From a bacterium UBP8_UBA817 (lineage in GTDB: Bacteria; Margulisbacteria; Marinamargulisbacteria; CAMDBA01), in contig CAMDBA010000003.1 in assembly GCA_945888995.1 (NCBI GenBank), forward strand, positions 64,279 through 128,278: a stretch of 64,000 nucleotides of DNA. Reading direction: 5' to 3'. The notes under the pieces were generated by a model that saw only the letters and a list, made by a program, of their open reading frames with translations, did not search any database and was not told where the DNA came from. A program made the position numbers and the translations under genes. Positions 35,428-48,057 of this stretch are shown here, one piece after another; position 1 is the first letter of the stretch, and every line of letters starts with the position of its first letter.

Positions 35428-35742
35428 CTATAGAGGCGAGGTCTCTATTTCGTCAAAAATTTCTCCCAGAACCTCCCGAAATTTTATCGAAAAATTCACA
35501 TCTTGTGGCTTGACATAGCGCACCATGATCCGATGAGAAGATCGCTCAAAAATCAGATACCCCAGATGATTAGGCAAATAGACATATTTTTCATCTTTAT
35601 TTTGCAGCTGGTTCTGAGCATCAAGATACAAAATCCGCTCGAACACTTCAGGAAACTTGTGCATCAAAATCTTAAAGAACTCCACATTACCTTCAAACAA
35701 AAACGATTGAATCCGCTCCGAAGTTAAATAATGATAAGACAT
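35428..35742 (-). CDS. hypothetical small cytoplasmic protein (about 104 aa)
   Basis: ORF 35428..35778, with MSYHYL at 35742 as the probable start. No signal peptide and mildly acidic. It is the first gene upstream of the secretin operon and is divergent from the USP-like gene. Confidence 0.45.
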   Translation of the reverse strand: MSYHYLTSERIQSFLFEGNVEFFKILMHKFPEVFERILYLDAQNQLQNKDEKYVYLPNHLGYLIFERSSHRIMVRYVKPQDVNFSIKFREVLGEIFDEIETSPL

Positions 35743-35873
35743 AGTATGTTCCCTCCCCCCATTTACACATATACCCACTATTCAAATGTCGAAAACATAA
35801 AAAAACACCTTTAATTTTCAAGAAAAAATGAAATCAAAATAAACTTAGAAACGACAATGTAGTACCGGGAAAA

Positions 35874-37541
35874 ATGTATAAAATCCGGCCTAAAAAAGGG
35901 TGTATCATGCAAAATTTTAATCTCAGCCATTTCTTCTCCACACAAAAACAAATGACTTCAAAAAAAACTGCCCCCATCGAAGCGGCAAGCACCAGCGTGC
36001 CCAAGCCCCCACAATCTTTAAAGATAAAATGTCATAGCAAAGATACCGGAAGCGAAAATGAACGCCATTATTACGCCCCTCTCCGTGCTGCGCTCCGCGA
36101 ATTCGGAATTCCAGAATCATACCTGAAAAACCCCACCCCATTCTCGATTATTTCTAAATTTATAAAAACACCGATCTCTCATAAGACCCATCAAAGCTTT
36201 CTAGGTATTCAAGAGTATCTTAAACAAACCCCGCATAAGGACAAAAACAAAGCCATTATTATTAATCTTTTATTGTCATTACAGGCAAAAACAAATACTG
36301 ACGAAAAAAAAGAATCGTCTGATGCGCTCTCGAAATCATTGTCTTTCTACCCCCATCGCCCCCCCCAGCCCCCTCGAGAGGACACCCTCACGCCATATGG
36401 AGAAAACCCTTTTTATTCCCCTAAAGTAACGGCACATACATACGCAACAGGTCCCTCCTATCCCCGCAGCATCGGCCAAATTACAGGCGGCCGCAATGCC
36501 TGCTGGTTCGTATCCACAATGTACATTCTAGCCGAATCCGCATTTGGGGACTTATTGCAAACTGCGCCGCTACACGAGAGCGATCCGCGCATTGTATTAC
36601 GAGAGCAAATAAAAACCGCACTCCTAACTATGAAGTCGGGAAGCCCCGTCAACGGCAGCGAGTTGCACTACCGCATTGAGACAGCATTACGCTTCGAGCA
36701 TGGCCAACAACATGATACTGCAGAAGCCCTTGACCAATTACTCGATTATTTCGGCGTCCAACCCTCTATTAGAGTCGAAGACCAACAACACCTGGAAGTC
36801 ACAGATGCAGCAGCTAATGAAACCATGCTCGCTGCGCTTCCGCCAAAAATCAACGAGTCCCATTACTGCAGAACTGAGCATGCCCAGCCAAGTCATTTCC
36901 TGCGTATCCGCTCAAGTGAATCGGTCCGACACCTCTCCGACCTGACAAATTTAACCACGCGTTATACCGATGGCAATATATTCCCGACCAGTGTCGGCAA
37001 TCTCAAAGAAACCCACGTCACTTCTCACCTGAGTTTTCACACAGCACCGCCAATCATCGGCATATCAAGCATCCCGTCTTTATATAGTGATTGTCTTTCT
37101 ATCTCCAGTCGACATCAGATCAGCCGACTTATCAAGCATTCAGGGCAAATTCCTGATGGGCTAATAACAACACTTGAACACGAACTTTCGACTATCGACA
37201 CCGCAAAAAAAACCATTATTGAGGGATATATACGACTCCTTAAAGAACTTGAAAAAGCGAGCCCTACCAACAGAAGCGCAAAATTAACCAGTCTTAGCTC
37301 TCACCATCTTAAAATGGTACGAGTCAGCCTAACAACCGGCCAGGGGCAACCTCAACTCCTCACTATGAATGATCGACTCACCATCCGATCCGCAGCAAGC
37401 GACGATCATCCCGATGGAGAACTATTTACATACACCGTCACCAGCGTTTTCGGCCGATCCGGAAGAAGTTCGGAGGGCGGACACTGGAGCAAAGGACTGC
37501 AGAGGGACGGTGATAACCTTTATATTTTAACCAAAACATAA
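35874..37541 (+). CDS. USP (peptidase C19)-like cysteine protease, putative eukaryotic-type deubiquitinase
   Basis: Cys box GGRNACWFVSTMYIL (Cys210, codon 36501-36503). QHD box HGQQHDTAEALDQLLDYF (res 276-293). His box GRSGRSSEGGHWSKGLQRDGDNLYIL (His537). No signal peptide and a polar, Pro/Ser/Lys-rich N-terminal 200 aa. An alternative start is at 35907. Confidence 0.55.
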   Translation: MYKIRPKKGCIMQNFNLSHFFSTQKQMTSKKTAPIEAASTSVPKPPQSLKIKCHSKDTGSENERHYYAPLRAALREFGIPESYLKNPTPFSIISKFIKTPISHKTHQSFLGIQEYLKQTPHKDKNKAIIINLLLSLQAKTNTDEKKESSDALSKSLSFYPHRPPQPPREDTLTPYGENPFYSPKVTAHTYATGPSYPRSIGQITGGRNACWFVSTMYILAESAFGDLLQTAPLHESDPRIVLREQIKTALLTMKSGSPVNGSELHYRIETALRFEHGQQHDTAEALDQLLDYFGVQPSIRVEDQQHLEVTDAAANETMLAALPPKINESHYCRTEHAQPSHFLRIRSSESVRHLSDLTNLTTRYTDGNIFPTSVGNLKETHVTSHLSFHTAPPIIGISSIPSLYSDCLSISSRHQISRLIKHSGQIPDGLITTLEHELSTIDTAKKTIIEGYIRLLKELEKASPTNRSAKLTSLSSHHLKMVRVSLTTGQGQPQLLTMNDRLTIRSAASDDHPDGELFTYTVTSVFGRSGRSSEGGHWSKGLQRDGDNLYILTKT

Positions 37542-37546
37542 CCGCA

Positions 37547-45836: not shown

Positions 45837-45865
45837 TTTGAGAGACTAGGAAGGAAGGAATAATA

Positions 45866-47542
45866 GTGTCAGACGAAGATATTGATTTAGACGAGGAATC
45901 CTCCTCCCACTCAGGGTTTCTTAGTAAAAAACGACTCTTATTTTTTGGTGTAATTGCAGCAGTATTATTGCTCATTATCTTCTTGGTATTCCTACGCTCT
46001 CCGAGTAATGGAAAAAAGAAAATAATGAACGCCAATTTAACCAAAGAAGAACGGTCGTCGCTTTTACAGGACGAACAGGTTAAAGAACTAGAAGTCGCCC
46101 AAAAAAAAGAGCTAGAACGCCTCTCCAAAGTCAAATACGAAAAGCTATATGAACAGCTATCCGGCGACCAAGCCGCGAATGTATTACAAGAGCTCAGTTT
46201 CGATGGCATTTTGTTCAAGACCGAACAAAAGGGTAAATATTACAACATCATGGTCGACAAAAACCGGTTTGTCGAAGCCCAGAACAAGCTCGCGATCAAA
46301 GGCCTGCCTTCAGGTGGAATCAAAGGCTATGAAATATTCGACAATGCGTCGAATATGGGTGTCACGGAATTCGATAAACGAATCAGGCTGGTTCGTGCAC
46401 TATCCGGTGAGCTTGAAAAAGCCATTATGCAAATTAACGGCATTATCAGTGCCAAGGTCCAAGTGGTTATGCCGGAACAACGGCTATTTACCGTCTCACA
46501 GCCCCCTGTCACAGCCGCCATTCTGATTCGGAAATCACTAGGTAAAGTCATTGATGACGAAATGGTCTATGGCATTATTCAATTGGTTGCGAACGCCGTT
46601 GAAAATCTTCAGCCTGAAAACGTCAGCCTAGTCGATACAGACGGACATGTTCTCTCGACCGGGGTATTTGAGCGCATTGCCGAAAAATACCGTAAAAAGA
46701 ACATTGCACTGCCCTACAGCAACAAATTATACCCCAATCACTTCGCGGATCTTCCTGTCGATGAATTAGGTCTCAATCCCTCAACAGATGACCCGACATT
46801 GCTCGGCGTCCATGACACGGTTAAAAGCTGGCTGAAAGCTCAAAAAGAATACGAAAAAAACCTGACCGAGAAAATTAAGCTCTTTTTAATGGGTCTATTA
46901 CCTGAAAAGAGCTATAAAATCGCGCTCAGCACCGAAGTAAATCCCGAATCCAGCAAAGGATTCGTAATTAAACGTACGTCCGTTGGGATTCTCATCAATA
47001 AAAAATATCCCTCGCTTTATACAACCGCAAAAAAAGCAGAGATTACACGAGCGATTTCCGGTGCAATCGGGTACAATCGTCAACGTGATTTTATCCAAGT
47101 AAACCCTGTTGACTTCTCGTTTTTCACCTCAGAAACGGTCGCAACGCCTGAAATAAAAGCGATTCCACAAGTAGTCGCACCTGTAGTCGTCCTCAAAGCC
47201 CCGGATCAGAAAAAATCGATGGGCATCAAGATGAAGACAGAAAAAGCAACCCAACATTGGGCGCATATACTAAAAAAATACTGGCGCTACATTGCCGTCG
47301 TAGGAGGCGTTATATTAGCCATCGGGCTTGTCGGTTTCTTGATTCGCCGCTGGCGGATCGCCAAATCGCATGAAGTCCACCTCGGCGGAACCAGAGAAAC
47401 AGACTTTTCGTCGATCAGCCGTGAAATTAACGGTGAGAAGAAAATAGAACGGCTCCGAGAGATTGCCCTCCAAAACCCAGCCGCTCTGGCACATCTAATG
47501 GAAGAATGGCTCCAATCCGAATATGAAGAGGTCGCATTATAA
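45866..47542 (+). CDS. fliF: flagellar MS-ring protein FliF
   Basis: N-terminal TM helix, a YscJ/FliF ring-building domain (LSGDQAANVLQELSFDGILFK...), a second TM helix near the C-terminus and a C-terminal FliG-binding helix. GTG start with a GGAAGGAAGGA RBS. Confidence 0.9.
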   Translation: MSDEDIDLDEESSSHSGFLSKKRLLFFGVIAAVLLLIIFLVFLRSPSNGKKKIMNANLTKEERSSLLQDEQVKELEVAQKKELERLSKVKYEKLYEQLSGDQAANVLQELSFDGILFKTEQKGKYYNIMVDKNRFVEAQNKLAIKGLPSGGIKGYEIFDNASNMGVTEFDKRIRLVRALSGELEKAIMQINGIISAKVQVVMPEQRLFTVSQPPVTAAILIRKSLGKVIDDEMVYGIIQLVANAVENLQPENVSLVDTDGHVLSTGVFERIAEKYRKKNIALPYSNKLYPNHFADLPVDELGLNPSTDDPTLLGVHDTVKSWLKAQKEYEKNLTEKIKLFLMGLLPEKSYKIALSTEVNPESSKGFVIKRTSVGILINKKYPSLYTTAKKAEITRAISGAIGYNRQRDFIQVNPVDFSFFTSETVATPEIKAIPQVVAPVVVLKAPDQKKSMGIKMKTEKATQHWAHILKKYWRYIAVVGGVILAIGLVGFLIRRWRIAKSHEVHLGGTRETDFSSISREINGEKKIERLREIALQNPAALAHLMEEWLQSEYEEVAL

Positions 47543-48057
47543 TGATTAGCGGTAAACAAAAAGCCCAATTACTACTTGCCTATCTGGGACCGGTCGGAAA
47601 AAACGTCCTCCAGAAACTTTCTGCTGAAAGCGCCACATTCCTGACCTCCCATGTCGAAAATGTAGCCACCGGTGATCCGGCTTTATTATCGGCTATTTAT
47701 GAAGAAGTCGAAGAAAAATTAACCGAAAGCCCCGCCGACTCGTTCGCACAAACGCAGCAAGAAGATGAAGAAGTCTATTCAGATTTCGGAGATGAAGCCA
47801 GTCCAAGCGAACCCGAAACAGCACCCGCGATTGCGGCCGGATATAATTTCCGACAAATGGCCTCATTACTGACTCATGAAAAACCTCAGATCATTGCATT
47901 TAGCCTTTCAAAAATGGAAGAAAGCTTAAGAAACAATATTATAGAATGCCTTCCTGATGATGTCAGGCAAGACGTGGAGAGGCGTTCGATTGAGGCCATT
48001 CCGCTATCAGACAAGGTATTTGATAGTATCTGGGCTAAGCTGACTAGCGTTAATTAA
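47542..48057 (+). CDS. fliG: FliG-like protein comprising only the N-terminal and middle (ARM-M) domains
   Basis: GKQKAQLLLAYLGPVGKNVLQKLSAE (FliG-N) and LLTHEKPQIIAFSLSKMEESLRNNIIECLPDDVRQDVERR (EHPQ-type middle domain). 171 aa versus about 330 for canonical FliG. ATGA-type overlap with fliF. Confidence 0.65.
   Translation: MISGKQKAQLLLAYLGPVGKNVLQKLSAESATFLTSHVENVATGDPALLSAIYEEVEEKLTESPADSFAQTQQEDEEVYSDFGDEASPSEPETAPAIAAGYNFRQMASLLTHEKPQIIAFSLSKMEESLRNNIIECLPDDVRQDVERRSIEAIPLSDKVFDSIWAKLTSVN

Follow-up and report, generated by a model that had tools for sequence, protein, structure and literature searches.

The window analysed here is a 64-kb stretch of contig CAMDBA010000003.1 (GCA_945888995.1, positions 64,279–128,278). 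At 37801–48057 on its plus strand lie 14 tightly packed, co-oriented genes that run from fliK to a fliG of 171 aa, as assigned with Pfam and NCBIfam. We consider this region probably to be a vertically inherited basal-body operon, which would form one module of the larger flagellar system of a Marinamargulisbacteria-type bacterium. An earlier note on this DNA had described the fourteen flagellar-type genes correctly and had suggested, as a hypothesis, a basal-body-only, non-rotating machine. That central inference fails at the genome level in relatives, as the single-amplified genome (SAG) AAA071-K20 and 'Ca. Ruthmannia eludens' between them encode the export gate, FliN/FliM, FlgE, FliI and MotAB at other places. 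What sets the operon apart is that a whole uncultured class departs twice from the textbook, with Sec signals on three proximal-rod proteins and with a FliG in the canonical slot that lacks the torque domain.

Gene content and conservation of the operon

The hallmarks of a basal body are present, namely FliF with both of its domains, FlgI and FlgH with signal peptides, and rod proteins carrying the rod motif. All genes are on the plus strand. The leading gene, fliK (37801–39066), encodes a hook-length control protein whose residues 321–393 match Pfam Flg_hook (36.7 bits, cut-off 29.8). It is followed by a gene for a free-standing FlhB C-terminal (CC) domain protein of 115 aa (39068–39415), which aligns with positions 262–335 of the 335 in Pfam Bac_export_2 and has TIGR00789 (flhB_rel) as its best NCBIfam match (101.7 bits against a cut-off of 117.35, model positions 2–82/84). 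This protein begins at what we take to be the NPTH autocleavage position of FlhB, where it reads N-I-K-A, and it would mimic the already-cleaved FlhB-CC fragment. The next two genes encode a FlgF-like proximal rod protein (39480–40259), which is below the cut-off of its best NCBIfam match, TIGR02490 (flgF, 93.4 bits), and passes the NCBIfam FlgEFG subfamily (72.2 bits against 70.25), and the distal rod protein FlgG (40306–41112; TIGR02488, 262.5 bits against 252.75; Pfam D1, rod N and rod C). Then come the P-ring chaperone FlgA (41087–41811; Pfam ChapFlgA, 78.6 bits), whose frame is broken, the L-ring protein FlgH (41786–42403; Pfam FlgH, 160 bits), which lacks a lipobox cysteine, and the P-ring protein FlgI (42404–43489; Pfam FlgI, 355 bits).

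The flgJ position is taken by a small ORF of 112 aa (43493–43831). It has no Pfam or NCBIfam family match; the position is kept in all loci, five relatives have a signal peptide there, and in one sister lineage (L016) the gene in this place has a faint match to PF10135 (Rod-binding). The 112-aa product is possibly a rod-binding-domain protein. A FliA/WhiG-like, sigma-28-type sigma factor (43876–44589) has Pfam Sigma70 regions 2 and 4, with TIGR02479 as its best NCBIfam match (123.6 bits against a cut-off of 189.6). The second half of the operon encodes the proximal rod proteins FlgB (44594–45025; Flg_bb_rod motif at residues 59–80; TIGR01396, 27.8 bits, below cut-off) and FlgC (45028–45477; TIGR01395, 111.4 bits against 102.1), FliE (45489–45836; Pfam FliE, 34.2 bits), the MS-ring protein FliF (45866–47542; YscJ_FliF, PF01514, 160 bits; YscJ_FliF_C, PF08345, 25.6 bits) and the short FliG (47542–48057; Pfam FliG_N and FliG_M). 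Most cluster proteins score under the curated NCBIfam cut-offs. As to the rod families, FlgG and FlgC pass at the equivalog level, the FlgF-like protein at the subfamily level, and FlgB is recognised by its motif alone.

The reading frame of flgA required additional attention. Its ATG at 41087 overlaps the end of flgG, and it encodes MQLKLLVRNFIFTSVFF before a stop that is due to a run of nine T (T9, 41130–41138). With one T added, the frame runs on to ...LALASPLLA/ADQ (the slash marks the cleavage site here and below), a signal peptide like those of the relatives. Because the identical T9 run is also found in an independent assembly (L001), the break is a true frameshift or a slippage or phase-variation site, not an assembly error. 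As a correction to the earlier note, the reading frame of flgA is interrupted.

At the 5' end, a sigma-70-like sequence (TTGACT-17-TACAAT, 37663–37691, plus strand) lies in the 260-bp gap before fliK. Matches to this consensus are no more numerous in the region than in shuffles, and we regard it as a candidate promoter only. At the 3' end, two stable hairpins follow fliG on the plus strand (48066–48090 and 48156–48190). The segment 48055–48314 folds with −75.9 kcal/mol (z = −4.1), and 0/200 shuffles fold as well. A simple terminator scan of the region did not flag these hairpins; they probably mark the end of the operon, where the earlier note had also placed it, and are followed by secA, prfB, a DUF5693 gene and the RNase III gene. 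That note had begun its span at 35428, which takes in an unrelated 116-aa ORF on the minus strand and a gene for a protein resembling ubiquitin-specific proteases (USP-like), neither of them present at the relatives' loci and both outside the conserved cluster.

The earlier observation that the window holds no further flagellar gene was borne out by Pfam scans of the other large ORFs, which returned housekeeping families, a short secretin and unknowns. The lone exception is a sub-threshold FlgD_ig match in a 1062-aa protein. The 10 kb beyond the left end of the window contain housekeeping genes only and no flagellar gene, and an Rfam scan found only a tRNA-Arg.

To examine conservation, FlgI was searched against the contigs of GTDB species representatives. 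This yielded six loci (L002–L007, 54–61% identity), two of them under the name Candidatus Marinamargulisbacteria, one as Actinomycetota and the others as metagenome-assembled genomes. Word-indexed homologue searches gave few matches (3, 3 and 7). Together with a metagenome contig (L021), the six loci make seven at which the 14-gene block recurs with like order and boundaries, where the contigs allow, and at all seven it ends in a short fliG. Identities of the cluster proteins across loci range from 25% (FliG) to 61% (FlgI), with FliK at 28–39% in L002–L004, L006 and L007, and the FlhB-C gene adjoins fliK at every locus that bears fliK. The earlier note had included the USP-like gene in its span; in relatives the block and its end point recur at the seven loci, but the USP-like neighbour never does.

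The block is flanked by housekeeping genes that vary by lineage: its 5' side has LepA and an aminotransferase IV, its 3' side Lnt, Nuo or a TonB system. Because the block is shared while these flanks vary, the cluster is an old, vertically inherited chromosomal operon. A horizontally acquired island (the earlier note had spoken of a flagellar island) was ruled out by the GC content of the cluster, which is like that of its surroundings, by the lack of repeats framing it and of mobile elements tied to it, and by its synteny amid changing housekeeping flanks.

Two sister lineages, found via FlgC homologues, show an extended order. In L016 (2498–14265) and L020 (322–7091) it reads SLT-fliK-flhBc-flgF-G-A-H-I-(rod-binding)-sigma-flgB-C-fliE-F-shortFliG-fliH-I-J, with fliH-fliI-fliJ directly after the short FliG.

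Flagellar genes at other loci in related genomes

Two published gene tables list, for relatives, flagellar genes that the window does not contain. In Supplementary Data 2 of Matheus Carnevali et al. (PMC6349859), the Marinamargulisbacteria SAG columns are AA1A, AG2A and AG3B, of which AG2A is AG-410-N11 and corresponds to our locus L004. AA1A (AAA071-K20) has FlhA, FlhB, FliO, FliP, FliQ, FliR, FliN and FlgE; it further has FliF, FlgC, FlgF, FlgH, FlgI, FlgA and K04061, with FliG marked 'check_length', and AG3B has FliP and FliN (PMC6349859). The second source is the RAST table (Supplementary file 3 of PMC6784892) of 'Ca. Ruthmannia eludens', a Trichoplax symbiont with a 1.51-Mb genome. Its pegs 304–309 are FlgI, FlgH, (306), FlgG, FlgF and an FlhB fragment, which is the first half of our cluster, and pegs 514–520 include FliF, FlgC and FliA (PMC6784892). 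The remaining components are spread over other places, with FliM, FliN, FliP, FliQ, FliR, FlhB and FlhA at pegs 1251–1260, FliI at peg 232, FlgE at peg 763 and FliG-MotA-MotB at pegs 420–422, and transcripts were reported for many flagellar genes, including FlgI, FlgG, FliF and FliA (PMC6784892).

Because related genomes carry the gate, C-ring, hook and stator genes at other loci, the window, judged by its relatives, lacks gate, ATPase, C ring, hook and stator by genome organisation and not by gene content. With this, the chief argument for a 'basal-body-only' machine falls away. The fliH-fliI-fliJ genes behind the short FliG of L016 and L020 also speak against it. In addition, FliK and sigma-28 are not known to work without a type III gate and late genes, and their presence in the cluster implies type III export.

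Such tables have to be read with some care. The KEGG Orthology (KO) scan overlooked FliE, FlgB and FliK, which are in the cluster, and divergent late genes could have been missed by it too. More generally, presence/absence tables made with KO or RAST under-call flagellar genes in phyla sibling to Cyanobacteria.

Rod proteins, short FliG and competing explanations

Flagellar axial proteins are textbook substrates of the flagellar type III system and carry no Sec signal, a rule that is broken here by FlgB, FlgC and the FlgF-like protein. At 7/7 loci these three proteins start with a basic n-region, a hydrophobic stretch of at least 11 residues and a small-x-small cleavage motif. The signal peptides in the window are MIPFRLILFGLLFLLFTSIAEA for the FlgF-like protein (followed by KS; cleavage motif AEA/K), MKKNLIALFSIFFITLLSPIWG for FlgB (followed by AV; SPIWG/A) and MLKVGLIILSGLLILSSGAWA for FlgC (followed by NG; AWA/N). 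The N-terminal hydrophobic peak (KD11) was compared over seven Marinamargulisbacteria-type loci or genomes. For the three proteins it is 2.35–3.26 (3.21 for the FlgF-like protein of the window), which falls among the values of FlgH and FlgI, both Sec substrates (2.0–3.8 overall, 3.4–3.5 in the window). FlgG, FliE and FliK have values of 0.2–1.7 (0.85, 0.91 and 0.83 in the window), have no signal peptide and keep the type III rule, FlgG with a canonical N-terminus. E. coli FlgB, FlgC and FlgF, used as controls, have values of 0.8–1.7. We therefore predict that the N-termini of FlgB, FlgC and the FlgF-like protein are cleavable Sec signal peptides. The earlier note had pointed to Sec signals on the rods, which holds for these three proteins but not for FlgG, FliE and FliK.

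Start-codon artefacts were ruled out as the source of these N-termini. The flgB gene has no other start codon ahead of the rod motif, a GGAGG Shine-Dalgarno sequence lies 7 nt 5' of the long-form ATG of flgC (45028), and in all lineages the added regions are open and signal-peptide-like. In the family alignment, positions 2–137/137 of TIGR01395 correspond to FlgC residues 26–149, leaving 25 additional residues at the N-terminus.

The exhaustive FlgC search returned 2209 relatives. Some 20 of the 150 nearest cluster representatives share the N-terminal addition, mainly those ranked highest. One of these, in L019 (7288–13797), belongs to an otherwise canonical flgB-flgC-fliE-fliF-fliG-fliH-I-J operon with a FliG of 344 aa. 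Two others, in L018 (5506–7170) and P0147, are in flgB-flgC-fliE-fliQ operons; L018 looks alphaproteobacterial, and its FlgB also has a signal-peptide-like N-terminus. Because the addition is present in the canonical L019 operon and in fliQ-bearing operons, this predicted signal peptide of FlgC is independent of whether the type III gate has been lost.

The sister lineages differ in how many rod proteins are affected. L016 has a signal peptide on FlgC only, plus an insertion of ~75 aa in FlgC, and L020 has signal peptides on FlgB and FlgC, a distribution that suggests a stepwise gain. In the Rickettsiales symbiont 'G. incantans', FlgC was flagged 'ER' (PMC6784892), perhaps a sign of the same N-terminal addition. 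Should the signal peptides work, the rod could be supplied from the periplasm, and the view of basal-body assembly order would change.

The second departure is in FliG, in which, by textbook account, torque is generated at the C-terminal domain. The 171-aa protein is the FliG orthologue by synteny, and it consists of the N-terminal FliF-binding region, an acidic linker and the M domain, with no C-terminal torque domain. TIGR00207 covers only positions 9–166/338 in it, and in the M domain the motif EKPQ replaces EHPQR. In an AlphaFold2 (AF2) model, the M domain (pLDDT 82–90) matches FliG_M of a FliG–FliM complex (4qrm_D; TM-score 0.69, root-mean-square deviation 2.2 Å), and the N part, modelled at low confidence, resembles FliG_N of the FliF–FliG complex. 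The relatives of this protein, at 163–243 aa, have a conserved N region, the acidic linker, the M domain and an acidic tail, and no C domain is present in any of them. The torque-domain-less FliG of the earlier note is thus confirmed and is conserved across deeply diverged relatives. Judging by sequence and model, the short FliG plausibly binds FliF and FliM and not MotA. In R. eludens, FliF seems to adjoin trp genes and not a short fliG (PMC6784892).

A wider distribution of the short form may be seen in Saganbacteria. According to the KO calls of PMC6349859 (Supplementary Data 2), 26/26 Saganbacteria are without FliG, FliM, FlgK and FliD, and FlgL is represented by one 'check_length' call only. 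Most of these genomes have FlhA, FlhB, FliPQR, FliN, FliF, rods, rings and FlgE (PMC6349859). The same scan also missed the short FliG of AG-410-N11. A short FliG may account for the FliG gap of the Saganbacteria, and its distribution may extend to a much wider clade.

On these observations, the operon would supply the envelope-spanning motor core, with gate, C ring, ATPase, hook and stator encoded elsewhere. FliF would form the MS ring, and FliE, FlgG and FliK, the last as ruler, would pass through the type III gate. FlgB, FlgC and the FlgF-like protein, whose Salmonella counterparts FlgB, FlgC and FlgF each form one layer of the proximal rod, would most likely be exported to the periplasm via Sec and enter the rod from there. 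FlgA, FlgH and FlgI would build the bushing (P and L rings), and the free FlhB-C domain might, more speculatively, modulate the substrate switch. The short FliG would dock FliF to FliM and would be unable to contact the stator, and any torque would have to come from a second FliG-like protein. The cluster would bring its own sigma-28-type factor and a small FlgJ-position protein to this system.

Several points weigh against the operon being one module of a complete flagellar system. The gate, FliM/N, FliI, hook and MotAB are placed elsewhere by comparison with related genomes, and AG-410-N11 (74.5% complete) shows cluster genes only in the KO table (PMC6349859). The candidate for a second, full-length FliG is one RAST annotation line of R. 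eludens (peg 420, by motAB), export and cleavage of the three rod proteins are predictions, and the window organism has the frameshift in flgA. Furthermore, no flagellin, FlgK, FlgL, FliD or FlgM is annotated by KO or RAST in four Marinamargulisbacteria genomes. Motility or flagella have never been observed in the class, and the published description 'motile by polar flagella' was drawn from genes. The earlier note had named a canonical gene set elsewhere, with observed motility, as evidence that would speak against its reading; the gate, FliM/N, FlgE and MotAB are indeed found in relatives, but no flagellin is annotated and no motility has been seen.

These gaps would suit an adjusted form of the earlier note's idea, a filament-less, possibly non-rotating, flagellum-derived envelope or secretion device, built from the basal body, the gate and perhaps a hook, with no junction, cap or flagellin, of the kind that has been proposed for Buchnera. 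Such a device would also agree with the canonical-slot FliG that lacks the stator-binding domain at every locus, with the Sec signal peptides on three rod proteins, with the lack of annotated chemotaxis genes in R. eludens and the marine SAGs (PMC6784892, PMC6349859), and with two hints of host association, the USP-like candidate effector and the intracellular-symbiont relative. We nevertheless consider it unlikely. The FliC row is uninformative because it is blank for 46/46 genomes, including Melainabacteria with FlgK, FlgL and FliD (PMC6349859), and late genes could have escaped the KO scan as FliE, FlgB and FliK did. R. eludens has MotA, MotB, a FliG, FliM and FliN, the retention of FliK and sigma-28 suggests hook completion and late-gene control, and a signal-peptide FlgC also occurs in a canonical operon with a 344-aa FliG. 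The more general proposal, that a Sec-fed proximal rod, a stator-blind FliG and the lack of a filament together make an envelope-spanning or secretion device in Marinamargulisbacteria and their short-FliG allies, appears quite doubtful to us.

It is very improbable that the cluster is what is left of a lost flagellum, in decay and no longer able to form a functional structure. The T9 frameshift of flgA in two independent assemblies, the truncation of FliG and the many proteins below curated family cut-offs could be taken as signs of decay. However, the other 13 ORFs are intact, the block order is kept at eight loci that have diverged to 25–61% identity, the short FliG keeps its length class and motifs, and the signal peptides are kept in every lineage. 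R. eludens also has transcripts for FlgI, FlgG, FliF, FliA and others. A vertically inherited operon for the basal body of a larger flagellar system is the reading that we retain as probable.

Neighbouring genes and known systems

Upstream of the cluster, the USP-like gene (35874–37541, plus strand) encodes a modular, USP/UCH-like candidate effector that does not belong to the flagellar system. The window protein has no match to Pfam UCH (PF00443) even at E ≤ 1. Two homologues, P0025 and P0026, pass this family (32.1 and 34.5 bits against 23.9), and in an alignment of the three proteins the Cys-box N-x-C-W, QQxD and HSG..H motifs are kept. Identity to P0025 is 85% over the N-terminal ~195 aa, and the first ~150 aa are nearly identical to P0026; the C-terminal ~350 aa are 24–25% identical to both. 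P0025 comes from a 120-kb contig that carries near-identical variants of the cluster. The AF2 model of the C-terminal domain (pLDDT 35.5) is unusable, and a PDB sequence search with the protein returned nothing. From its sequence, this looks like a fast-diversifying, eukaryote-type deubiquitinase-like gene, and it hints at a host-associated lifestyle. The identification made in the earlier note thus stands as far as the motifs and the two homologues go, but the window copy fails Pfam and is not syntenic with the cluster. A functional link between the two was ruled out, as no relative has the gene in synteny with the cluster.

Next to the USP-like gene, on its upstream side, a trio on the minus strand (33109–35322) is composed of a short secretin (352 aa; Secretin and Secretin_N) followed by ORFs of 143 and 255 aa without family. 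These could together form a small module for a pilus or for secretion. At L003, L004, L006 and L021, the aminotransferase IV gene is directly upstream of fliK, with LepA farther upstream and Lnt 3' of the short fliG. The window has LepA and the aminotransferase IV (11329–15330) on the opposite strand at a distance of ~22 kb, and Lnt is past its left end. This indicates that an inversion or rearrangement brought a XerC-like recombinase (31092–32015), the secretin module and the USP-like gene near the cluster.

The far end of the window has two further features. A 2456-aa ORF (54712–62082, minus strand) has no Pfam match and includes a GCAGCG-rich, 12-nt periodic repeat at ~58021–58139. Past the end of this ORF, at 62602–62967, is a non-coding direct repeat of ~190–209 nt in two copies that are 91–96% identical.

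The flagellar genes of Marinamargulisbacteria are already on record. Axial proteins with Sec signals and a C-less FliG in the canonical slot, both recognised here from sequence, appear to be undescribed in the literature searched, and Sec-signal flagellar rod proteins in general were not described there. The published Margulisbacteria and R. eludens sets come from the same class of organism, and the peg order of R. eludens matches the cluster; as far as searched, these two papers give gene presence and contain no description of the rod signal peptides, the short FliG or the 14-gene block (PMC6349859, PMC6784892).

The 115-aa FlhB-C protein fits the stand-alone architecture (~85–120 aa) of the flhB_rel family (TIGR00789; K04061), although its score is below the cut-off. 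We know of no established function for this family. K04061 was recorded for Marinamargulisbacteria and Saganbacteria (PMC6349859).

The system also invites a comparison with Buchnera, as both lineages keep rod, ring and MS-ring genes with no flagellin annotated, and the lineage of the cluster may be host-associated. Buchnera aphidicola has flagellin-less basal bodies and is not known to have MotAB; as far as is known, its rod proteins are ordinary type III substrates and its FliG is full length. In contrast, MotAB is present in R. eludens, a relative of the cluster's organism, and the flagellin gap of the cluster's lineage is at the level of annotation only. Spirochaetes have two FliG paralogues, FliG1 and FliG2, both full length and with divided roles. 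They show that a genome can encode more than one FliG-like protein, whereas here the syntenic copy is the truncated one.

Against the canonical flgBC-fliEFGHIJ and flgFGAHIJ operons of Salmonella and E. coli, the cluster is alike in its families and mostly in its local orders, flgF-G-A-H-I-(J) and flgB-C-fliE-F-G, and its FlgH and FlgI are Sec substrates as usual. It differs in the Sec signals on FlgB, FlgC and the FlgF-like protein, in a FliG without the torque domain and in fliHIJ not being attached. In addition, fliK, the free FlhB-C gene and fliA are embedded in it, and its FlgH is without the lipobox cysteine.

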